Source: a virus | IMG/VR virus record: IMGVR_UViG_3300045988_054439 | DNA: 34,726 nucleotides | Direction: 5' to 3' (one strand) | Part shown: in pieces, positions 1,678-34,726 of the stretch | Numbering within the stretch: the stretch's first letter is position 1 | How the letters are laid out: each line of letters begins with the position of its first letter | Notes under the pieces: model-generated | What the model was told of the DNA's origin: nothing | What the model saw: only the letters and a program-made list of their open reading frames with translations | Database searches by the model: none | Translations under genes and position numbers: made by a program

Positions 1678-2955
1678 TTATTTCCTCATATTTGCTTTTT
1701 TTTTGTAAAATTCAAAGCCATAAACCAATTCTTTTATATAATTTGGGACAATTTTAATTTTAGGACTTTTCAAAAGCTTTTCAAACATTTCCGGTGTCGG
1801 TATTCCAGTTTGACCATCAAGCTGAACGCACAACCAATGAGAGTACATTTGTGTCCCTGTTAATTCTTCAATTTCTTTCGCTTTTATGCCAGTTGATTTT
1901 AGCCATTTCGTAAACTTCAATCTATCTTGTGGCGAATCGCTCCTTTCAAAGTTCCCAAAAATGACGGGCTCGTAAGAATCAAAAATTTCTTTTGAATCCA
2001 TTATGTCTACAAAACTTTTGCTTCTTAAAAATTTAGAGCTTCCTGCGTTTTGATAAATAGCTTTGAAACATCCAGCGGTTCCAGACTTTTCCATCATTTC
2101 GGTTGCTTCAACTTTTTCTCCGTTGTATATGTGTTCAAGATTATATTTATTTATCTTAAAGCCTTCTACGCCCTCACATCCGCAGCAAGTCATACTGTCG
2201 CCCATTGTTCGCAACCTATTTTCGGCGCACATAAAAGTAAGACCCAAGCTGTGGCATTTTTGCTTTATCGCTTCATAATCTTTTACAAGAATATGCTTCG
2301 GATATACAAAATCTCCTCCGACTTTAATAAGCCCGGGTTTAGGCTTTACAAACTTCATGTTTTCAATCGTAATTCCATAAATTCCGATTTTTGCATATTC
2401 GTCAAGACTTTGCATTACCTCTTCAAAGACTTCGGTCATATACGGCTGAATGCGGACAACAACCCTTTTACAATTACCAACAAGTTTTCTAAGCATTTCA
2501 AGTCTTTCGGAATATTTCGGGGCACCTTTTTCCAAAACATCATATTTTGAACAAACCATTGAAACCTGAACAACTGCATTGCATTGCCTCAAAAGGCTCA
2601 AGTAATCATCTTCGCAAATAAGTTTTCCCTTTGTGCTTACTATAAACGGATATTTTGTTTCTGCAAAAATCTTTAATGCTTCATAACTTATTCTATGGAC
2701 TTTTTCGCAGGGCTGAAATGGGTCACTCATTCCGCCCCAGTGCAACGGAATGCCCCAATCGCACCACTTTGTAACTTCGCTTCTCTTGCCGTTTATAAAA
2801 TCTTTTAATTGCTTCAAGCAGTTATCTTTTTCAATTTTTGTTATATCGCTTTTCCTTTGAACAAAACAATATTTGCAGGCATGCGAACATCCTTTATATG
2901 TATCAATTCTGACAGGGCAATCGCACAAAACAATTTGAGAACCACAAGCAATCAT
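1678..2955 (-). CDS. Radical-SAM protein of the SPL / 'DNA repair photolyase' (COG1533)-like type, with a C-terminal HTH-like extension
   Basis: CxxxCxxC cluster motif GCSHACKYC near the N-terminus. Motif order (WGGMSDPFQP, IVSTKG, VQVSM, RIQPYM) resembles SplB-like enzymes. The C-terminal ~90 aa read IKAKEIEELTGTQMYSHWL...GIPTPEMFEKLL. GC is about 33-35% in hand-counted lines, against more than 50% in the flanks. Confidence 0.7.
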   Translation of the reverse strand: MIACGSQIVLCDCPVRIDTYKGCSHACKYCFVQRKSDITKIEKDNCLKQLKDFINGKRSEVTKWCDWGIPLHWGGMSDPFQPCEKVHRISYEALKIFAETKYPFIVSTKGKLICEDDYLSLLRQCNAVVQVSMVCSKYDVLEKGAPKYSERLEMLRKLVGNCKRVVVRIQPYMTEVFEEVMQSLDEYAKIGIYGITIENMKFVKPKPGLIKVGGDFVYPKHILVKDYEAIKQKCHSLGLTFMCAENRLRTMGDSMTCCGCEGVEGFKINKYNLEHIYNGEKVEATEMMEKSGTAGCFKAIYQNAGSSKFLRSKSFVDIMDSKEIFDSYEPVIFGNFERSDSPQDRLKFTKWLKSTGIKAKEIEELTGTQMYSHWLCVQLDGQTGIPTPEMFEKLLKSPKIKIVPNYIKELVYGFEFYKKKANMRK

Positions 2956-2956
2956 T

Positions 2957-3526
2957 TTATAATACTCCCATGATCTTCAACAACTCTTTGCTATAAAACT
3001 CTTTTGTCATTTCTTTTATCTTGCCCTTAACGGCGTCCTCATATTGTTTCGGAAAACAAAAAGAAATTGAAAATTCTTCTCTTTGAAGTTTATTGTTGTT
3101 TGTCATACAGTTTTCGTCTTCAAGAAGTTCATCAATATAACTCAATTGTTGACCTTGTTCGTTCACTTCAAAGCCAAAATCAAAATCAAAATCACTAAAA
3201 TCAAGATCTGCAATTTCATCCGCCAGCAGGTCAAAGTCCCAGTCGCTCTCATTGCTCTTGTTATCCACCAACCGCAGGGCGTTCACTTGTTCGGGTGTCA
3301 AGTCGTCAACACAAACGCACGGCACCTCCTTCAGCCCCAGCTTCTTTGCGCCAAGGGCTCGGCAATGACCGATCACAATCACGCCGTCCTTATCTACAAC
3401 GATAGGCTGAACGAAACCATACTGCCGAATACTCTCGGCCACATTGTCAATTTGCGTTTGGTCATGCTTTTTAGCGTTCTTCTCATACGGCTTGATTGTA
3501 TCAAGCGCTCGCATTTCAACCTTCAT
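2957..3526 (-). CDS. ParB/Srx N-terminal-domain protein with an acidic linker
   Basis: Start chosen at MKVEMRAL (SD AGGAGG upstream). Carries ParB-N motifs (KPYEKNAKKH, GFVQPIVVD, IGHCRALGAKKLG) followed by DWDFDLLADEIADLDFSDFDFDFGFEV. No ParB HTH or dimerisation domain is recognisable. Confidence 0.75.
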   Translation of the reverse strand: MKVEMRALDTIKPYEKNAKKHDQTQIDNVAESIRQYGFVQPIVVDKDGVIVIGHCRALGAKKLGLKEVPCVCVDDLTPEQVNALRLVDNKSNESDWDFDLLADEIADLDFSDFDFDFGFEVNEQGQQLSYIDELLEDENCMTNNNKLQREEFSISFCFPKQYEDAVKGKIKEMTKEFYSKELLKIMGVL

Positions 3527-11921: not shown

Positions 11922-12296
11922 TTAGGCAATGTACTGCAAGCCGGCAGCCTCAACCTTGGCCAGGATCGTGGCCTTGCGCATACCTTTGCGAACGCCCTTG
12001 ACGCCGTTGTCCTTGGCGAAAGTCAGCAATTTTTCATAAGCTTCGCAACCAGCCTGGAAGCGGTCAACCTGTGCCTGCTCATCTGCCTTGTACTCTTCTT
12101 CGGTCATCGTGCAAGACTTCGGACACCACATAGCCTTGGTGGTTTCAAACTCGCCGTCATAAGTCGTTGCGATCATCTCGAGTTTGTAAGCCTTGGCTGT
12201 TTCGTCAATCACCTGCACAGCGGTGTGAACCAAATATACGCCGCAAGCCTCATCCTGCATTTTATTGAAAAACCAGTCTTTAACCATTACCTTCAT
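11922..12296 (-). CDS. Hypothetical protein; first gene of early operon 2
   Basis: 124 aa with SD GAAAGGAGAA, directly downstream of promoter 12348-12376. Confidence 0.55.
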   Translation of the reverse strand: MKVMVKDWFFNKMQDEACGVYLVHTAVQVIDETAKAYKLEMIATTYDGEFETTKAMWCPKSCTMTEEEYKADEQAQVDRFQAGCEAYEKLLTFAKDNGVKGVRKGMRKATILAKVEAAGLQYIA

Positions 12297-12347
12297 TTTA
12301 TTTTCTCCTTTCGTCGGGGGTCTTTATCTCTCCCCCTTACATTTACT

Positions 12348-12376
12348 ATTCTACACCATCCAGGCCGAAAAGTCAA
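12348..12376 (-). promoter_or_regulatory. Sigma-70/SigA-type early promoter
   Basis: Minus strand TTGACT (12376-12371), a 17-nt spacer, then TAGAAT (12353-12348). Phased T/A tracts lie upstream (12377-12415). Confidence 0.7.
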
Positions 12377-12442
12377 TACCTTTTTTATATTTTTTTTATA
12401 TTTCTTTTATACAATCGGTATAAAACTTGCGTGATATGCTCG

Positions 12443-12471
12443 TGGAAATACAAACTGTAAAATTCTAAAAT
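12443..12471 (+). promoter_or_regulatory. Candidate promoter of the plus-strand cassette
   Basis: TGGAAA, a 17-nt spacer, then TAAAAT, about 25 nt before the SD GGAGGG and ATG 12498. Confidence 0.4.
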
Positions 12472-12497
12472 AGAGATAGAAACGGAGGGAACAGTCA

Positions 12498-12905
12498 ATG
12501 TATAACACATTCAACGGCTATATGCAGGGCGTGCAGCCCTATGGGAACCCATACGCTGACAGGCTGGCAGCAATGCAGCAGAACCAAGCAATGCAACAGC
12601 GTTGTGATGTAGTCACTGTCAATGGCGAGAACGGAGCGCAGGCATACCCGCTGGCACCTAACAGCAGCGCCTTACTGCTGGACGAAAGTCAGCCGCTTGT
12701 GTGGCTTGTCAAGACCGACGGCGCAGGATATAAGACGGTGTCTGCGTTCAACATCACTCCACACGAACAGACGCAACAGCCGACCAACGCAGACCTTGAA
12801 CAGCGCATAGCAAGACTGGAGGAGATCATCAATGCGCAACCCGATACTGGACGCAATGCAAAAACAAAGCAGCGGGCAGCAGCCGCAGAACCTGCCGGCA
12901 AATAA
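12498..12905 (+). CDS. Hypothetical Gln-rich protein (cassette P1)
   Basis: 135 aa with SD GGAGGG. The Q/N-rich N-terminus is followed by a beta-rich core. The 3' 74 nt overlap P2 in another frame. Confidence 0.55.
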   Translation: MYNTFNGYMQGVQPYGNPYADRLAAMQQNQAMQQRCDVVTVNGENGAQAYPLAPNSSALLLDESQPLVWLVKTDGAGYKTVSAFNITPHEQTQQPTNADLEQRIARLEEIINAQPDTGRNAKTKQRAAAAEPAGK

Positions 12906-13068
12906 CGGCGGGAATTTCTTGCAGCAGCTGGCGGAATTCCGTAAAGCCCTTGGCGGGAAAGACCCGCAAGCGATCGTACAGAATTTGCTAAACACCGGGC
13001 AGATGAGCCAACAGCAGTTTCAGCAGTTGAAAGCCCAAGCCGAGCAAATCCAATCAATGTTAAAATGA
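12832..13068 (+). CDS. Hypothetical Gln-rich helical protein (cassette P2)
   Basis: 78 aa with strong SD GGAGGAG 7 nt before the ATG. Confidence 0.55.
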   Translation: MRNPILDAMQKQSSGQQPQNLPANNGGNFLQQLAEFRKALGGKDPQAIVQNLLNTGQMSQQQFQQLKAQAEQIQSMLK

Positions 13069-13119
13069 GGCGGTGCACAGCCCATTTTATAAAAATCTAA
13101 CGAAAGGACAAAAAGCGAA

Positions 13120-13695
13120 ATGGATAACTATTCACTTTCCGACCTGCGGGCAGCCGTAGGTGATGACAACGGCGCATTTGGCGGCAACGGCGCTTGGTGG
13201 GTGATCCTGCTCTTCCTGTTTTGGGGCTTCAATGGCAACGGCTGGAACCGCCAGGGCGAGTTTGGCCAGTACGCAACCGCTGCCAGCCAGCAGGAAATCC
13301 TGTTCGGCCAGCAGTTCGGCCAGCTGAACGACCGGCTGAACACTATCGGCAATGGTATCTGTGACAGCACCTTTGCTTTGAACAACAGCATTTTGACCGA
13401 GGGTCGAGCAATCCAAGGCCAGCTGGCAGACTGCTGCTGCAAGAACCAGCTTGCGACGGCCAATCTGTCTGCGCAGATGAACCAGAACGCTTGCGACATC
13501 ACAACGGCGATTCACGCAGAGGGCGAAGCCACCCGGCAGCTGATTCAGAAGAACGAGATCCAGGCACTGCGGGACAAGGTGACAAGCCTTGAAATGGACA
13601 GCCGTTTCTGCGGCGTCGTTCGCTATCCGATGAGTTACGCATACAATGCGGGCCCGTCTCCGTTCTGCGGCTGTAACAGCTGCTGCAACATCTAA
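13120..13695 (+). CDS. Membrane-anchored Cys-rich protein (cassette P3)
   Basis: A Gly/Trp-rich transmembrane (TM) segment (NGAWWVILLFLFWGFNGNGW), Q/N-rich helical repeats, a CCC triplet, and C-terminal FCGCNSCCNI. Confidence 0.6.
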   Translation: MDNYSLSDLRAAVGDDNGAFGGNGAWWVILLFLFWGFNGNGWNRQGEFGQYATAASQQEILFGQQFGQLNDRLNTIGNGICDSTFALNNSILTEGRAIQGQLADCCCKNQLATANLSAQMNQNACDITTAIHAEGEATRQLIQKNEIQALRDKVTSLEMDSRFCGVVRYPMSYAYNAGPSPFCGCNSCCNI

Positions 13696-13780
13696 ACACA
13701 CGCCACCACGGCGAGGATTTCAACCGGCGGGGGCGGCAACAGCTGCTCCCGCTAATCTTTTACGAAAGGAAAAACTAAAA

Positions 13781-14182
13781 ATGTCAAAATCTGCAATTTA
13801 TACCACCAATACCACCGCACCCACCATCACGGCAGGCAATGTCATCCCGGTAGGCGTGACAAGCCGCCGGTTCGGCTGCAATATCCGCCAGGACGGCAAT
13901 ACAATCACGCTTTGCGGAAGCGGATATTACAAAGTGACAGCCGTGGCCACCGTTACGCCTCCTGCTGCTGGCACTGTTTCTTTGACAGCCCAAAAGGACG
14001 GCGTTGCCGTGATCGGCGCAACATCCAGTGCCACCACAGCCGCCGTAAATGAAACCGTTACGCTGACAGTGAGCGCCATTCTCCGCAATGCCTGCGGCTG
14101 CGACAGTTCGATCCTGTCCTTTGTGCTGGGCGGCGCAACTGCCGTTGTCAACAACCTGTCCGTGACGGTCGAGAAACTGTAA
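13781..14182 (+). CDS. BclA C-terminal-domain / C1q-like beta-jellyroll protein (cassette P4), without collagen repeats
   Basis: Start at MSKSAIY (SD AAAGGA). The pattern GYYKVTAVATV...LTAQKDGVAVIG...LSVTVEKL parallels the BclA CTD, recognised from memory. Confidence 0.45.
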   Translation: MSKSAIYTTNTTAPTITAGNVIPVGVTSRRFGCNIRQDGNTITLCGSGYYKVTAVATVTPPAAGTVSLTAQKDGVAVIGATSSATTAAVNETVTLTVSAILRNACGCDSSILSFVLGGATAVVNNLSVTVEKL

Positions 14183-14194
14183 AGGCGGCCGACT

Positions 14195-14755
14195 ATGACT
14201 TCAAGCGAAATTTTTGGGCGCATAAATGCCCACCAAATCGAGGGAATAATGCTGCATAGCCAGCTGGCTGAATATTTCGGCTTTTTGAATTTGTGTGGCT
14301 ATCAACGCCAGCAAGAATGCCAGGCAATGTCCGAATTTTACGAACACCAAAAAACTGCCCTGTATTTTGTCTCACGCTTTAACCATTTGCTGCCGGAAAC
14401 GGCCGCCAAAGACCCGGAGATCATTCCGGACGCTTGGCGCGGCTACACCCGCCAACAGGTTGACGCCGGAACAAAACGCAAGGCTGTCCGTGACGCATTT
14501 TTGCGGTGGAAATCCTGGGAAACCGAAACCAAGAAGCTGTACGAACAGGCATACGCAGACCTGCACGAACTTGGCGAGATTGCAGCAGCTTGCGAAGTCA
14601 AAAAACTTGTTGAGTCGGTAGCTTGCGAGTTGGAGCGTGTCGAAAGTCAGCGCATAACCTTGGAGTGCTTGGACTATGACCTTGCGGCGATCTGCTCCGA
14701 GCAAGACAGATTGCTCGCAAGATATTCTCTGAATTACGGAGTTGTGACAGCCTAA
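14195..14755 (+). CDS. Ferritin-like four-helix-bundle protein (cassette P5), tentative
   Basis: QIEG...ECQAMSEFYEHQK (E...ExxH) and WETE...ELERVE resemble di-iron ligand spacing. 186 aa. Confidence 0.35.
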   Translation: MTSSEIFGRINAHQIEGIMLHSQLAEYFGFLNLCGYQRQQECQAMSEFYEHQKTALYFVSRFNHLLPETAAKDPEIIPDAWRGYTRQQVDAGTKRKAVRDAFLRWKSWETETKKLYEQAYADLHELGEIAAACEVKKLVESVACELERVESQRITLECLDYDLAAICSEQDRLLARYSLNYGVVTA

Positions 14756-14760
14756 AAGAA

Positions 14761-14787
14761 AAGGGCGGAGCCTTTCGCTCTGCCCTT
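14761..14787. terminator. Bidirectional intrinsic terminator between convergent units
   Basis: AAGGGCGGAGC-CTTTC-GCTCTGCCCTT forms an 11-bp stem with one G-U pair. A/T runs lie on both sides. Confidence 0.75.
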
Positions 14788-14791
14788 ATTC

Positions 14792-14926
14792 TCAATATTC
14801 CCGCTGCACATTGACCAGCTTGCCGTGCTTGGCTTCTGCGTGTTGTAATTCGACTTTATCGAACCCAGCGCACCAGCAACGGTACCCGTCAGCGAAAGTG
14901 TACACGAACACAACCTCTTTGTTCAT
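14792..14926 (-). CDS. Hypothetical 44-aa protein; last gene of early operon 1
   Basis: Start at MNKEVV (SD GGGGGTGA). Confidence 0.4.
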   Translation of the reverse strand: MNKEVVFVYTFADGYRCWCAGFDKVELQHAEAKHGKLVNVQREY

Positions 14927-14957
14927 TTTATCACCCCCAATACGAAAGGAAAAAGCT

Positions 14958-15293
14958 ATGATTTCTTTGGATATACTCAATCAAGATATACTCGATTTGG
15001 AGCGCAACCACGACACGACTTGGGCGACGGTTGAACGCCTTGCCTGGCTATATATCGTCCGTGACCACCTTGCCGGCGGCGCCAGCAAGTCCACCAAGCC
15101 TGTGAGCACTGACGGCTCAAGCGACTTCTTGGCCGCCGCTGACGGCCTGGACACCTGCCAGGTGCTCGACCTTATGGACGAACTAATGGACACGCTCCAG
15201 GTGATCTCTCCAGCACTTTATCACTCCGCAATGCTCCGGCTGGACGCATTGGAGCCGTCCTCGTCCTTGCCGAGTGAGCAAGCGAGCAAATAG
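14958..15293 (+). CDS. Hypothetical 111-aa protein embedded antisense in early operon 1
   Basis: SD AAAGGA 8 nt before ATG 14958. The composition is protein-like (MISLDILNQDILDLERNHDTTWATVERLAWLYIVRDHL), whereas the minus-strand frames here are S/R-rich. Confidence 0.5.
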   Translation: MISLDILNQDILDLERNHDTTWATVERLAWLYIVRDHLAGGASKSTKPVSTDGSSDFLAAADGLDTCQVLDLMDELMDTLQVISPALYHSAMLRLDALEPSSSLPSEQASK

Positions 15294-15523
15294 GTCTGCT
15301 GAAAGTCTGTAATCCGGGCGACTGGCTGCTGCCGGTCGTCTTTTTTGCGCCCATCGTCCTCCCAGTCGTCTACGGCCAACATAACGCCCGCTAAGACGGT
15401 CAAGCCGCCAAGGCATATAACTGGTATGGGTAGCCACCAAAACTGCTCCGAAACCAAGCAGAAGCCCACACAGGCCACTACACAGCCAAGCCACCGCAGC
15501 ACGGCAGATATTGCATTCCTCAT
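15221..15523 (-). CDS. Small membrane protein (2 TM)
   Basis: ATGA coupling to the upstream gene. Two hydrophobic helices and an acidic/basic tail. Confidence 0.55.
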   Translation of the reverse strand: MRNAISAVLRWLGCVVACVGFCLVSEQFWWLPIPVICLGGLTVLAGVMLAVDDWEDDGRKKDDRQQPVARITDFQQTYLLACSLGKDEDGSNASSRSIAE

Positions 15524-16240: not shown

Positions 16241-16317
16241 AGTTTTCTCCTTTCGCGTTTTTGCTCGCCAGCTTTTATTTGGGCTTGGGCTGATGTGCTC
16301 AACCCCAGCAGAAGCAT

Positions 16318-16572
16318 TTAAGCCGTTAGGCCGTAAGCGTAATTAACAAACACAAAAGTGTTTCCTCCGCTTAATATCTCGCCGGTGAACTCGTCTCGCT
16401 CGTAGCTTTCATAGCCTTTTGTGAGTTGCTCAATTTCTTTGATGTCAATGGCCAAATCTTTGATTGTCAGCCAAATGGCATATCCATCATACCGAACGCC
16501 AACCTTGCGGCTGCTGTATCCGTGTTCTTTCAGTGCTTGTCTAATTGCTGCAATTCTTTCACGATCTGTCAT
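16318..16572 (-). CDS. Hypothetical protein; first gene of early operon 1
   Basis: 84 aa with SD GAAAGGAGAA, downstream of promoter 16631-16659. Confidence 0.55.
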   Translation of the reverse strand: MTDRERIAAIRQALKEHGYSSRKVGVRYDGYAIWLTIKDLAIDIKEIEQLTKGYESYERDEFTGEILSGGNTFVFVNYAYGLTA

Positions 16573-16630
16573 TTTTTTTGTTCTCCTTTCAACTTCGGCC
16601 GGGGTTCCTTTCCCCCTCCCCTGTGACTAT

Positions 16631-16659
16631 ATATTACCACAATGCAAAGCGAATGTCAA
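16631..16659 (-). promoter_or_regulatory. Sigma-70/SigA-type early promoter
   Basis: Minus strand TTGACA (16659-16654), a 17-nt spacer, then TAATAT (16636-16631). Phased ATACTTTTT repeats lie upstream. Confidence 0.75.
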
Positions 16660-16699
16660 TACTTTTTTTATACTTTTTCAATACTTTTTCTATATTTTT

Positions 16700-16728
16700 T
16701 TGACTTTTCCAAAATCTCGTTGTAAAAT
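16700..16728 (+). promoter_or_regulatory. Divergent sigma-70-type promoter
   Basis: TTGACT (16700-16705), a 17-nt spacer, then TAAAAT (16723-16728). Confidence 0.65.
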
Positions 16729-16734
16729 AAAAGT

Positions 16735-16795
16735 GATTAGGCCACCCGCACCTCTGCCAATGATTCTCGGCAAGTGTCCCAGCGGTGGCTTTTTT
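16735..16795 (+). ncRNA. Candidate ~60-nt small RNA (promoter, hairpin and T6)
   Basis: Outer stem GCCACC (16741-16746) / GGTGGC (16784-16789), inner stem TGCC/GGCA, then TTTTTT (16790-16795). No ORF. Confidence 0.35.
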
Positions 16796-16797
16796 GG

Positions 16798-16986
16798 CAT
16801 AAAGAAAACACCCAGCCAGTTGACCGGGTGTTTCCTTCTGCTCGTCACATTCTTGCTTGAAAGGAGAAAAGAATATGCTCGGCGGATTGCCGTCCGCCTT
16901 GTTGATAGTTACCCGCTCCCTGGTTGGCGTAGAGCAAATGCTCAGCTTGGGAGAAATACGGCGCTTCAGGTGGCAGTTCTACCAAC
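16798..16986 (-). ncRNA. Candidate ~185-nt non-coding RNA with CU-rich anti-SD tracts
   Basis: A consensus promoter lies immediately upstream. The intrinsic terminator AACACCC-N12-GGGTGTT plus TTTTCTTT sits at 16833-16798. No SD/ATG-initiated ORF. Contains an internal hairpin GGCGGA-CGGCAA-TCCGCC and the tracts UUUCUCCC and UUCUCCUUUC. Confidence 0.45.
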
Positions 16987-16992
16987 AATATA

Positions 16993-17021
16993 ATTATAGC
17001 CGATTGCAGCGGTCTTGTCAA
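16993..17021 (-). promoter_or_regulatory. Perfect-consensus sigma-70 promoter driving the candidate ncRNA
   Basis: Minus strand TTGACA (17021-17016), a 17-nt spacer, then TATAAT (16998-16993). Confidence 0.75.
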
Positions 17022-17031
17022 CGGCCGGTTT

Positions 17032-17196
17032 TCAAATGTGGCGCAAGATCTTCTTTTCGCACTTGTACACGATGTTCTGTGCGTGTCGAACAGAAATGTC
17101 AAACTCCTCCGCCAGCGGCTCAAAACAAACACCATCAAGCCACCTGCGCTTGAATATCCGGCGGTGTTGCTCGTTGAAAATGTACTGCTCTATCAA
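17032..17196 (-). CDS. Small sigma-70-region-4-like HTH protein, putative late-gene regulator. The TTG-initiated remnant is annotated; the upstream ATG 17244 is cut off by an in-frame TAA.
   Basis: IFKRRWLDGVCFEPLAEEFDISVRHAQNIVYKCEKKIL resembles a sigma region 4 HTH. SD plus ATG at 17244 give MRADDVADLSR, then TAA (17211-17209), then the same frame continues QWEHL(TTG)IEQY. Confidence 0.5.
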   Translation of the reverse strand: MIEQYIFNEQHRRIFKRRWLDGVCFEPLAEEFDISVRHAQNIVYKCEKKILRHI

Positions 17197-17357
17197 GTGC
17201 TCCCATTGTTATCTTGACAGATCCGCCACATCGTCCGCCCTCATCTGCTCCACCTCATCTTGATTTCACCCGCCCGCTGCCTTTGCATGTCGGGCACTTT
17301 TTGTAGCCGGAATTTCCGCCAGTCTTGCGAACTCTCCTGCGAGTGACAGTTTTTGTT

Positions 17358-17642
17358 CTAATCGTTTGTCGTGCCAACCATATCACAACCTACGAAATTG
17401 TTGTCACCACCGCCTGCCGTGTCTTGCGTTACCGTTTGCTCTGTTTGACTTGTAACATCCTCAAACTGGCTCTCGTAACACAGCCACGCAATGTTTGATC
17501 CAATTAGCGCAAGGATCAAAAAAACGATGATTAAAGCAAGCCGCCGAATGTTACGCTCCGCCCTGGCAGACACCGCCTCAAATGCTGCATAAGGCACATT
17601 GGCAGCCACTTGGCAGCCGTCGCACTGTTTGTTGTTGTCCAT
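17358..17642 (-). CDS. Single-pass membrane protein of the lysis cassette
   Basis: Start at MDNNKQ (SD GGAGGA). TM segment LALIIVFLILALIGSNIAWL. Confidence 0.55.
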   Translation of the reverse strand: MDNNKQCDGCQVAANVPYAAFEAVSARAERNIRRLALIIVFLILALIGSNIAWLCYESQFEDVTSQTEQTVTQDTAGGGDNNFVGCDMVGTTND

Positions 17643-28308: not shown

Positions 28309-28665
28309 TTAACCGCCAATGCTGGGCGTGAATTCCTCCGCCGTGACCTGGAACACCTGGAAACTGGCGGATTTCGGCGTCATCTTGTCGTCGCCGTCGG
28401 AAGTCACACGGAACACCTTGCCGTCGGATAGTCGCTTGAATACATCATAATACTCAATGCGTGTTCCGAGCGGTACAGTGACAGTGTACAGACTTGTAAC
28501 GCCTGCCTTTTCCGCCGTGCGGGCTTCCATCGAGCTGTCGAAGGTAATTGCCGCCTTGAACGGCGCACCCTCCACCCAGCTGGTGGTATATCCGCCCTCT
28601 CCGTCCGGTATGTCTGTTTTTCGCATAAAGACGCAATCTGTCATTGCCTGCGCCAAAAGACTCAT
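28309..28665 (-). CDS. Head closure / head-tail adaptor protein
   Basis: Start at MSLLAQ (ATGA overlap, SD GGAGGA). SPP1 gp16-like in size and position. Confidence 0.55.
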   Translation of the reverse strand: MSLLAQAMTDCVFMRKTDIPDGEGGYTTSWVEGAPFKAAITFDSSMEARTAEKAGVTSLYTVTVPLGTRIEYYDVFKRLSDGKVFRVTSDGDDKMTPKSASFQVFQVTAEEFTPSIGG

Positions 28666-29087
28666 TGTAGCTTCCTCCATTCGTTTAGGCGGGCGCGAAA
28701 GACAGTAGGCCAGTCAAGCGCAGCGCCGTTTGCGTCAGTTCCTCGGCTATAAGAATAACCGCCGAAACTTTCGCTCACAAACGCGCCGGGCTTGCCCGCC
28801 TCACTCTCGCAAAACGCCTTGATTTCCCTTGATAAGTCCACCAGTTTAGGAGGTATCGCCAGTGCCCATATCGCCCCGCTGAAAGTCTCGTCAGTCAAAT
28901 CCAAGTCGGCCTTCGCATACCTATGAACGCCATCATTGAAGACGCTCCCCACGATGCGGAAGTATTGCCCTTCCTGCAAAAAGTCCAGCGGCGTGATTTT
29001 GCCGCCTTCAATTTTGTACTCCCCCTTGTGTATGCCGTCCAGCACCAAGAAGTAGTTGTGCAACTTTGCACAAATCTCTGTCAGCAT
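28662..29087 (-). CDS. Head-tail connector protein
   Basis: 141 aa, first gene after the capsid gene. Confidence 0.5.
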   Translation of the reverse strand: MLTEICAKLHNYFLVLDGIHKGEYKIEGGKITPLDFLQEGQYFRIVGSVFNDGVHRYAKADLDLTDETFSGAIWALAIPPKLVDLSREIKAFCESEAGKPGAFVSESFGGYSYSRGTDANGAALDWPTVFRARLNEWRKLQ

Positions 29088-33648: not shown

Positions 33649-33888
33649 TTATTTGGCCACGCTCAAAATAAGCGGACTTTCTTTTTTGCCGATTTTTTTG
33701 CGTAAAATCGTATTCACAAAATATCGAATATCATCCATGCAGTTATGAACGATCAAGCCGCCGTTAACGGAAAAGTTGTGCGTGCCGATCACTTCCATGT
33801 TATACACGTCTTCATTTTGCACACTCTCGATTTTTAGCACCTTTACAAGATTGGCAGAACTTCGTTTTTTGGTACTTGTTCGCGACAT
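33649..33888 (-). CDS. terL: Terminase large subunit, C-terminal fragment: the split-intein C-half (49 aa) plus a 30-aa C-extein
   Basis: SD GGAGGGG and ATG 33888. Reads ...VYNMEVIGTHNFSVNGGLIVHN (Asn codon 33744-33742), then Cys+1 (33741-33739) and CMDDIRYFVNT. This completes the TerL nuclease motif ENDH-x-MDDxRY. Confidence 0.8.
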   Translation of the reverse strand: MSRTSTKKRSSANLVKVLKIESVQNEDVYNMEVIGTHNFSVNGGLIVHNCMDDIRYFVNTILRKKIGKKESPLILSVAK

Positions 33889-34444
33889 ATTCCCCTCCAC
33901 ACCTTTCACAGATTTTTGTCACATTGTCAAAGCCCATCTTCCTGCGATATGCAGATTTGCATTTGTTTGAGCAAAAGCGGTTTTTGTTCTCGCCATACGT
34001 TGCCTTTGTCTCAAATTCTTTTCCGCAGAAGGTGCAACGATAAGACTTCAAGGGCATATTTTTGAAAGTTTCGATTGCGTGTTGCGAGTGCCATTTTTTG
34101 CCCTCTTCGCTGCCATGCCATTTAGACGCTTTTGGTCTCGCATTTTTTGCGAGGTTTTCCCTCGCCCACTCTCGTCTTTCCTCGCTCCACGAACTGCCAT
34201 GCAAGTTAGAATGTTCTTTCGCTGTCATCAGCACAAGGTTTTCGATTTCGTTGTTGTTCTTATCAAAATTCTTGTGGTGAACGTTGTACCCCTTTGGGAC
34301 TTCTGAGCCGTTGTAATACTCCCACACATAAACGTGAAGCCGTTTGTGTGTTTTCGCATTCAAAAAATATCCGGTTTTCTTATCTCTGCGGAACGACAAG
34401 CCGTCAAAGCAAGCGAGATCGCCGTCGTCAACATATTGAACCAT
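33812..34444 (-). CDS. Free-standing HNH homing endonuclease (HNH_3 type) with tandem C-terminal zinc-finger repeats
   Basis: SD GGAGGA (34457-34452) and ATG 34444. HNH motif VHHKNFDKNNNEIENLVLMTAKEHSNLH. Two CxxCG...FCxxxCK repeats. Confidence 0.85.
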   Translation of the reverse strand: MVQYVDDGDLACFDGLSFRRDKKTGYFLNAKTHKRLHVYVWEYYNGSEVPKGYNVHHKNFDKNNNEIENLVLMTAKEHSNLHGSSWSEERREWARENLAKNARPKASKWHGSEEGKKWHSQHAIETFKNMPLKSYRCTFCGKEFETKATYGENKNRFCSNKCKSAYRRKMGFDNVTKICERCGGEYVANKYQKTKFCQSCKGAKNRECAK

Positions 34445-34627: not shown

Positions 34628-34726
34628 ATTTTTTTTTGTTCTTCTCACACCAAAAAACGGTCTTATACATTTCTTTTTCCGCTTCTCGTTGTAACTCCAA
34701 ACAAGACCGATTTTTCCAACAAGGTC
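34628..34726. repeat. Second copy of the 99-bp terminal repeat (identical to 1-99)
   Basis: Exact identity to the window start. Confidence 0.95.

Follow-up and report, generated by a model that had tools for sequence, protein, structure and literature searches.

A candidate structured small RNA with an exposed anti-Shine-Dalgarno loop in a clade of phages of uncultured human-gut Clostridia

The stretch of viral DNA considered here (IMG/VR record IMGVR_UViG_3300045988_054439, 34,726 nt; hereafter the window) contains on its minus strand, between a perfect consensus promoter and a strong intrinsic terminator, a unit that we regard with good confidence as an independent gene for a structured non-coding RNA. 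Comparison of the sequences indicates that it is a free-standing gene, present in a single tight clade of siphovirus-like phages of ~34.6 kb whose hosts are uncultured human-gut Clostridia. In the predicted folds, the conserved functional element is a hairpin that presents (U)CUCCUUUC in its apical loop. We consider the RNA to be a credible new phage sRNA family, for which masking of ribosome-binding sites (RBSs) is a plausible mechanism, as suggested by the complementarity of the loop to Shine-Dalgarno (SD) sequences.

Protein-anchored and DNA-pattern scans of IMG/VR and human-gut metagenomes yielded ~25 contigs, all from one phage clade, and from these IMG/VR and metagenome contigs 22 distinct versions of the RNA were recovered. 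An earlier reading of the window, made from its letters alone (the sequence-only reading), had described a promoter TTGACA-17-TATAAT at 17021-16993, which was confirmed with a consensus score of 12/12. It begins 11 nt past the stop codon of a gene for a sigma-region-4-like protein. The promoter is not unique, as it is one of two perfect TTGACA-17-TATAAT promoters in the genome, where four perfect or one-mismatch promoters were observed and 0.19 were expected. The other perfect copy is located at 30717-30689 on the minus strand, upstream of the genes for the scaffold (30628) and the major head protein, and suggests that the structural genes with the highest expression are likewise driven by host sigma-A. 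The strong terminator claimed at 16833-16798 proved to be real and stronger than described, with a 16-bp stem, a 4-nt loop and a UUUUCUUU tail (Table 1). The ORF-less unit between them, previously put at ~185 nt, was likewise confirmed and measures ~187 nt. Transcription would most likely start at the purine G16986, 7 nt 3' of the -10 box, and probably ends in the U tract at 16801-16798. Both promoter hexamers were kept in 22 of the 22 versions (the -10 box being TAAAAT in three), also in the short-type versions, in which the spacer has wholly diverged. The terminator was present in all 22.

Table 1. Features of the RNA unit, of the adjoining early control region and of the candidate target sites (positions in the window).
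Feature	Position	Strand	Details
Sigma-70-type promoter	16993..17021	-	-35 TTGACA 17021-17016, 17-nt spacer, -10 TATAAT 16998-16993
Predicted ncRNA, ~187-189 nt	16798..16986	-	MFE -70.7 kcal/mol, z -4.2 (189-nt RNA, against dinucleotide shuffles)
5' domain	16901..16986	-	closed by H1, GUUGGUAG 16986-16979 with CUAUCAAC 16908-16901
5'-domain interior helices	16959-16957 with 16931-16929; 16943-16940 with 16935-16932	-	GUA/UAC; GAGC/GCUC
CU tract 1, UUUCUCCC	16956-16949	-	inside 5' domain, not conserved
GC hairpin	16881..16898	-	GGCGGA-CGGCAA-UCCGCC
Anti-SD hairpin	16846..16877	-	stem CAUAUUCUU 16877-16869 with AAGAAUGUG 16854-16846; apical loop 16868-16855
CU tract 2, UUCUCCUUUC	16868-16859	-	in apical loop of anti-SD hairpin
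Intrinsic terminator	16798..16837	-	stem 16837-16822 with 16817-16802, loop 16821-16818, U tract UUUUCUUU
Imperfect palindrome, ~46 bp	16745..16790	-	GCCACCGC…GCGGGTGGC; between RNA terminator and early promoter
Three A-tract repeats	16656-16699	-	11-nt spacing, TCAATACTTTTT-like; immediately upstream of early promoter -35; highly conserved in relatives
Early promoter	16659-16631	-	TTGACA-17-TAATAT with TG extension; highly conserved in relatives
Best candidate target RBS, UUGAAAGGAGAACAAAA	16576..16592	-	first gene of early operon I, ATG at 16572
Second candidate target RBS, ACGAAAGGAGAAAAUAA	12298..12314	-	first gene of operon II, ATG 12296; promoter 12376-12348 upstream

The last 99 nt of the window (34628-34726) repeat the first 99 nt (1-99), which indicates a complete circular assembly with a true length of 34,627 bp. 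The gene set is siphovirus-like (portal, head morphogenesis protein, scaffold, major head protein, tape measure, tail proteins and a C39-like lysin) and includes a replication module with a helicase-primase, an SSB-like protein, an ERCC4 nuclease, a ParB-like protein, a dUTPase and a methyltransferase. No integrase, repressor or other lysogeny gene was found among the ORFs scanned, so that the phage looks virulent. The immunity switch that the sequence-only reading had proposed is unsupported.

The RNA gene has the end of the late/lysis block before it and early operon I after it. The sigma-70-region-4-like gene on its upstream side (17032-17244, minus strand) encodes 70 aa in the relatives (P0001, MRADDVAYLSREQWEH…). 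In the window, codon 12 of this gene (17209-17211, minus strand) is an in-frame TAA where the relatives have GAA, which is a nonsense mutation or a sequencing error and leaves a 54-aa TTG-initiated remainder. On the downstream side, the palindrome between the RNA terminator and the early promoter is better conserved than the RNA gene, has a central GATC in most relatives and may be a second minus-strand terminator or a protein-binding site. The A-tract repeats that follow resemble curved DNA or a UP-type element. An extra insert of ~225 bp with a small gene (MEKI…) is present in about half of the relatives' genomes (L002, L003, L006, L007, L009, L010 and L011; ~2760-3000), between the early promoter/leader and the gene for an 84-aa early protein, with the same GAAAGGAGAAC RBS. 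The only plus-strand block of the window (12498-15293) comprises five ORFs, one of them weakly BclA_C-like; it diverges from operon II at 12296-12498 and has a terminator at its end (15316-15341).

The RNA was predicted to fold into four parts: a 5' domain, a GC hairpin, the anti-SD loop hairpin and the terminator. Because helix H1 closes the 5' domain, the 5' end of the RNA would be base-paired. H1 was 96.6% paired across the versions and showed compensatory changes from A-U to G-C (6 sequences) and from C-G to U-A (7 sequences). In three short versions 43 nt of the interior of the 5' domain are deleted and a different, shorter interior is present, with H1 retained. The GC hairpin GGCGGA-CGGCAA-TCCGCC was confirmed at the position where the sequence-only reading had seen it (16898-16881); its second pair alternates between G-C (8 sequences) and U-A (13 sequences), and four versions lengthen it by a 15-nt insert. 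The terminator is the best-conserved helix, with 99.7% of its cells paired in the alignment of the relatives, and eight of its pairs vary on one side only, still pairing via G·U, A-U or G-C. Both of the CU tracts reported earlier are present in the window, but only the second is conserved in the relatives.

Folding and covariation in homologous loci had been suggested as a check on the claim of a regulatory-RNA gene. Pairing was tallied for an analyst-specified structure on a MAFFT alignment (A2, 966 cells), with controls in which the partners were slid by 1-3 columns. The structure is kept: 95.8% of the 966 helix cells were paired, against 39-52% in the slid controls, and the covariation score was 0.146, against 0.055-0.069. 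There are 26 varying pairs, of which 14 vary on one side only and yet stay paired (G·U, A-U or G-C), while four show compensatory double changes that cover 22 cells, a level reached by 0 of 500 shuffles. Realignment of the 3' domain by the covariance model gave similar figures. The helices contain 126 G·U cells and 20 A·C cells, an excess which indicates that the RNA has the minus-strand sense; when they were read in the opposite sense, pairing fell from 95.8% to 84.8%.

In nine comparable genomes, 52 of the 188 RNA columns were variable, compared with 21 of 55 third codon positions. The primary sequence thus varies near the synonymous rate, and selection would act only on the structure and a few motifs. 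As the clade is shallow and the sequence near-neutral, the structural evidence is moderate, not overwhelming. A column variability close to the synonymous rate, together with the narrow clade and the relatives at 65-69% protein identity that are without the RNA, would also suit a locus that has no function, being a near-neutral spacer with a strong promoter and a terminator around it. In that case the terminator would end the late operon and the motif would be a relic of a duplicated RBS. We consider this improbable, since the variable paired columns mostly stay paired (14 one-sided, 4 compensatory), both promoter hexamers are kept despite the diverged spacer, and the octamer of the loop is exposed through five or six stem replacements, in loops of 8-14 nt.

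No coding signal was detected on either strand, given the frameshifting indels and the lack of codon periodicity, unlike in the flanking genes. On the minus strand, the unit contains no SD with ATG, as the sequence-only reading had stated. The sole frame with a TTG start (47 codons), which that reading had also listed, exists in the window and is destroyed in the relatives by indels of 1, 2, 4 and 43 nt. On the plus strand, an SD (GAAAGGAGAA, 16859-16868) is followed six bases on by an ATG at 16875, so that a small peptide might start here, the minus-strand RNA being incidental or an antisense partner as in type I toxin-antitoxin systems. This textbook arrangement is well spaced in all 16 versions translated, and unrelated database matches to the same pattern are true gene starts on the opposite strand. 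However, the frame behind it (SD-ATG 16859-16877) ranges from 18 to >90 aa among the versions, and in its long form would overlap a real gene in antisense. It has no third-position bias, with variable columns of 7/16, 7/15 and 6/15 by codon position, where the sigma-like gene has 2, 3 and 28 of 55 and the 84-aa gene 12, 7 and 26 of 85. The substitutions seen in it (G/V, A/D, P/L) are radical, and it is these that compensate in the RNA hairpin; the G·U pairs favour the minus strand. The sole plus-strand promoter-like site (16700-16728) lies within or adjoining the phased A-tract repeats, in A/T-rich sequence, and is therefore probably spurious, and two U-tailed hairpins stand between it and the SD. 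Taken as the explanation of the locus, a plus-strand gene start is highly improbable. A type I toxin-antitoxin pair was rejected, as no conserved ORF for a small hydrophobic toxin was seen: the plus-strand ORF is variable in length and aperiodic and has charged residues. The minus-strand unit combines several properties of an independent bacterial-type sRNA gene: a conserved promoter and terminator of its own, a non-coding nature and a conserved structure with covariation.

The anti-SD character that had been ascribed to the second CU tract was found in a conserved, predicted exposed loop. (U)CUCCUUUC occupied the apical loop in 21 of the 22 local folds, and the stems beneath it are of five or six kinds. 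Besides the stem of the window (CAUAUUCUU/AAGAAUGUG), these are GCAU-AUUCUU/AAGAAAUGC, CAUAUUUUU/AAAAAUAUG, UUUUU/AAAAG inside GCUC/GAGC, and GCAU..UUAC/GUAAUGC, with loop sizes between 8 and 14 nt across the versions. In full-length ensemble folds the octamer had a mean probability of being unpaired of 0.97 (minimum 0.88), compared with 0.31-0.39 for the whole RNA. CUCCUUUC was present exactly in 19 of the 22 versions; the other three carry one loop change each (CCUCUUUC, CUCCUUCC and CUCCUUAC), with CUCC or CCUC left. CUCCUUUC is the core of the 3' tail of Firmicute 16S rRNA (…CCUCCUUUCU-3').

A scan with Rfam/Infernal, also suggested in the sequence-only reading, revealed no known family: Rfam 15 had no match in the whole window at gathering thresholds, and at permissive thresholds the best matches (<=18 bits, E >=0.6) covered the terminator only. 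ARAGORN found no tRNA or tmRNA genes in the window, and BLASTN of 16573-17400 against 50,697 phage records gave no match. Among the sequences collected, a covariance model of the 3' domain (R1) retrieved nothing beyond the 22 known members, and the window contained no further copy. A scan of viral contigs for CTCCTTTC...GGGTGTTTTCTTT yielded no more than two additional loci, which are unrelated and are opposite-strand gene starts. Relatives at a greater distance, whether of the 84-aa early protein (L017-L019) or of the sigma-like protein (L043-L057, L176-L180), were without the RNA. Genomes in which the latter protein is 43-69% identical have only the terminator, or a gap of 93-126 nt, at the position of the RNA; at 65-69% identity just 93-126 nt follow the sigma-like gene and the RNA is absent. 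Confinement to a tight clade and absence in the next relatives indicate a clade-specific insertion.

A type II-A CRISPR array with the repeat GTTTGAGAATAGTGTAAATTCATAAGGTAGTTAAAC (~42 repeats, cas genes upstream) was found on human-gut contigs (L064:6058-8861, and L077). In the L064 array at least 8 spacers match the phage, four of them perfectly, and the sites matched in the window include 16769-16797, 33871-33901, 28390-28419 and 28945-28974. The first of these is in the conserved palindrome just 3' of the RNA terminator. The Cas1 of L064 is 63-65% identical to that of Eubacteriales, Ruminococcus and Clostridia MAGs. The spacer matches and the relatives of Cas1 point to an uncultured gut member of the Clostridia as host; an exact match of the CRISPR repeat identified no host, and the Cas1 relatives reach only 63-65%. 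A role as an RNA anti-CRISPR that mimics the CRISPR repeat, or as a tracrRNA-like RNA, was considered and rejected: the predicted duplex with the L064 repeat (-19.1 kcal/mol) was equalled by 13 of 200 shuffles, and for anti-repeat mimicry 48 of 200 shuffles did equally well.

The extended SD GAAAGGAGAA occurs at four minus-strand sites, 16590-16581, 16254-16245, 12312-12303 and 8711-8702. Three of these had been given correctly by the sequence-only reading, while its third (16243-16252) was off by two bases and should read 16245-16254. The 17-mer complement of the loop region, TTGAAAGGAGAAAAGAA, was found with <=3 mismatches at two other genome sites only, where 0.27 were expected by chance. 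Both sites (16592-16576 and 12314-12298) are on the mRNA strand, and each is the RBS of a gene that comes first behind a sigma-70-type promoter. The claim that the first genes of the early operons are among the SD complements was thus upheld, these two RBSs being the best matches genome-wide. The site in early operon I is complementary to the loop region at 15 of 17 nt, 12 of them contiguous, and was recovered independently in a repeat search without bias. In 16 of 19 related genomes 10-12 contiguous Watson-Crick bases are possible between the loop and the leader RBS. As in RBS-masking regulators of the c4, RNAIII or RsaE kind, an accessible loop is complementary to an early RBS. The 5' UTR of the 16572 gene also contains a GGGG/CCCC hairpin with an 8-nt loop, GAAAGGAA, at 16605-16612 (minus strand). 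Seven nt of this loop are complementary to the sRNA loop, which makes it a possible loop-loop kissing site upstream of the SD.

The core of the loop is generic. AAAGGAG is present 18 times and AAGGAGA nine times on the minus strand, and the 8-nt core is complementary to the SD of many genes, whatever their class. By cofold ddG, early and late genes did not differ in predicted binding (p=0.15), so that any specificity rests on the two 17-mer matches. Ranking of targets by prediction of full-length duplexes was uninformative, and an invariant segment of the 5' domain, considered as a second seed, had no complement elsewhere in the genome. In the related genomes the three loop point mutants were uncompensated in the leader SD, and a U/C polymorphism beside this SD was independent of the loop flank. 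Neither co-variation of seed and target nor specificity beyond generic SDs was therefore found. For the early/late switch proposed by the sequence-only reading, no preference for early genes was found other than at those two sites, and it is rather doubtful that the early operons are the physiological targets.

The same observations bear on a different use of a real RNA, in which the loop would act on host mRNAs with strong SDs (shut-off or reprogramming) or would stand in for the 16S tail, as a decoy of a protein or nuclease that recognises it. This use is favoured by a core common to the generic anti-SD, by the lack of a measurable preference for early over late genes, and by a loop and leader that do not co-evolve. 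The gene also resembles a moron, as an insertion confined to the clade and flanked by a promoter and a terminator of its own. However, the two best extended matches in the phage are both in first cistrons of promoter-proximal operons, and for a decoy no candidate protein partner is known. We regard this use as somewhat unlikely.

A further explanation is that the unit acts in cis. Transcripts from 17021 would in part read through the terminator and the hairpin at 16790-16745 into early operon I, and the loop would pair with the SD 264 nt downstream, so that these long transcripts would be translationally silent and those from 16659 active. The two promoters are indeed in tandem, and loop and SD form a same-strand inverted repeat of 17 nt, 88% complementary, with arms 264 nt apart. 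Against this, the terminator that would have to be passed combines a 16-bp stem and a U tract and surpasses all other helices in conservation, a second hairpin and the UP-like A-tract element precede the early operon's own strong promoter, and the match at 12314-12298 is unreachable in cis. A cis-acting leader therefore seems a poor candidate.

The reading that we prefer, and hold tentatively, is that a trans-acting sRNA masks strong extended SDs by means of its exposed anti-SD loop. The RNA gene would be transcribed by host sigma-A RNA polymerase from the perfect consensus promoter, and for that reason the RNA should be plentiful as soon as infection begins. The helix that holds its 5' end and the strong terminator hairpin at its 3' end should also make it stable. 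The working part would be one hairpin, of which the apical loop always displays UUCUCCUUUC, with the core CUCCUUUC that it has in common with the 3' tail of 16S rRNA. This loop would pair with strong extended SDs (GAAAGGAGAA), best of all with the first-cistron RBSs at 16592-16576 and 12314-12298, and the pairing would block binding of the 30S subunit. As the RNA accumulates, translation of the early genes would be turned down, a delayed shut-off that would be the RNA counterpart of the T4 RegA/RegB type. Transcription, stability and pairing in vivo, as well as the direction and timing of the effect, are what we infer from the DNA. In a bolder version, which we think unlikely, a lytic phage would use an abundant RNA copy of the anti-SD tail to compete against 30S subunits for the strongest SDs, as a timer made of RNA only that shuts the early operons and possibly host messages and needs no protein repressor or nuclease.

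Timing of this kind is known from T4, where RegA is a translational repressor and RegB an endoribonuclease that cuts GGAG, and where shut-off acts at the RBS or SD of early mRNAs. Those effectors are proteins, whereas the effector proposed here is an RNA, with a presumptive role in timing. We rate this RNA as one of the phage-encoded base-pairing kind, but as a new RNA family that by sequence or model is outside c4, RNAIII and RsaE/RoxS. S. aureus RNAIII and RsaE/RoxS are stable, multi-hairpin Firmicute sRNAs of which the C/U-rich loops pair with purine-rich SDs of several mRNAs. They are chromosomal, use UCCC or CCCC motifs and belong to Rfam families. The RNA described here, in contrast, is phage-borne and has a single conserved seed loop, CUCCUUUC, equal to the 16S anti-SD core; it matches none of them. 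The pRNA of phi29 was considered too, being a phage RNA of ~170-190 nt with a strong early promoter and its 5' end in a helix. It was rejected, as there is no Rfam pRNA match and the RNA lacks paired interlocking loops; in addition, the genome assembled as a circle, and its portal and HNH endonuclease are usual for packaging of the terminase type (a terminase was not among the genes identified).

The examples of phage sRNAs known to us are from phages of E. coli and Salmonella. The c4 RNA of P1/P7, with the sar RNA of P22 as its cis-encoded cousin, is such a phage small RNA, with loops that pair with the surroundings of an RBS and so keep a phage operon from being translated. It is processed from the leader of the operon that it controls, acts at a'/b' sites instead of the SD, and serves immunity in temperate phages. 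The RNA of the present clade differs in that it has a gene to itself, complete with promoter and terminator, and a generic anti-SD seed, in a phage in which no lysogeny genes were found, and it has no sequence or Rfam similarity to c4. Blocking of an RBS by c4 through complementary loop sequences has been reviewed, and in the same review, which covers phage sRNAs and dates from 2025, the term 'Gram-positive' does not occur (PMC12197685). The present RNA would be an sRNA family with structural support, borne by an uncultured phage of human-gut Clostridia, with a seed that is unusual because it is a generic anti-SD and not a gene-specific antisense stretch. If the proposed mechanism is true, it would give a phage a very cheap means of timing early-gene translation, and would represent a compact, portable RBS-masking module for Firmicutes.
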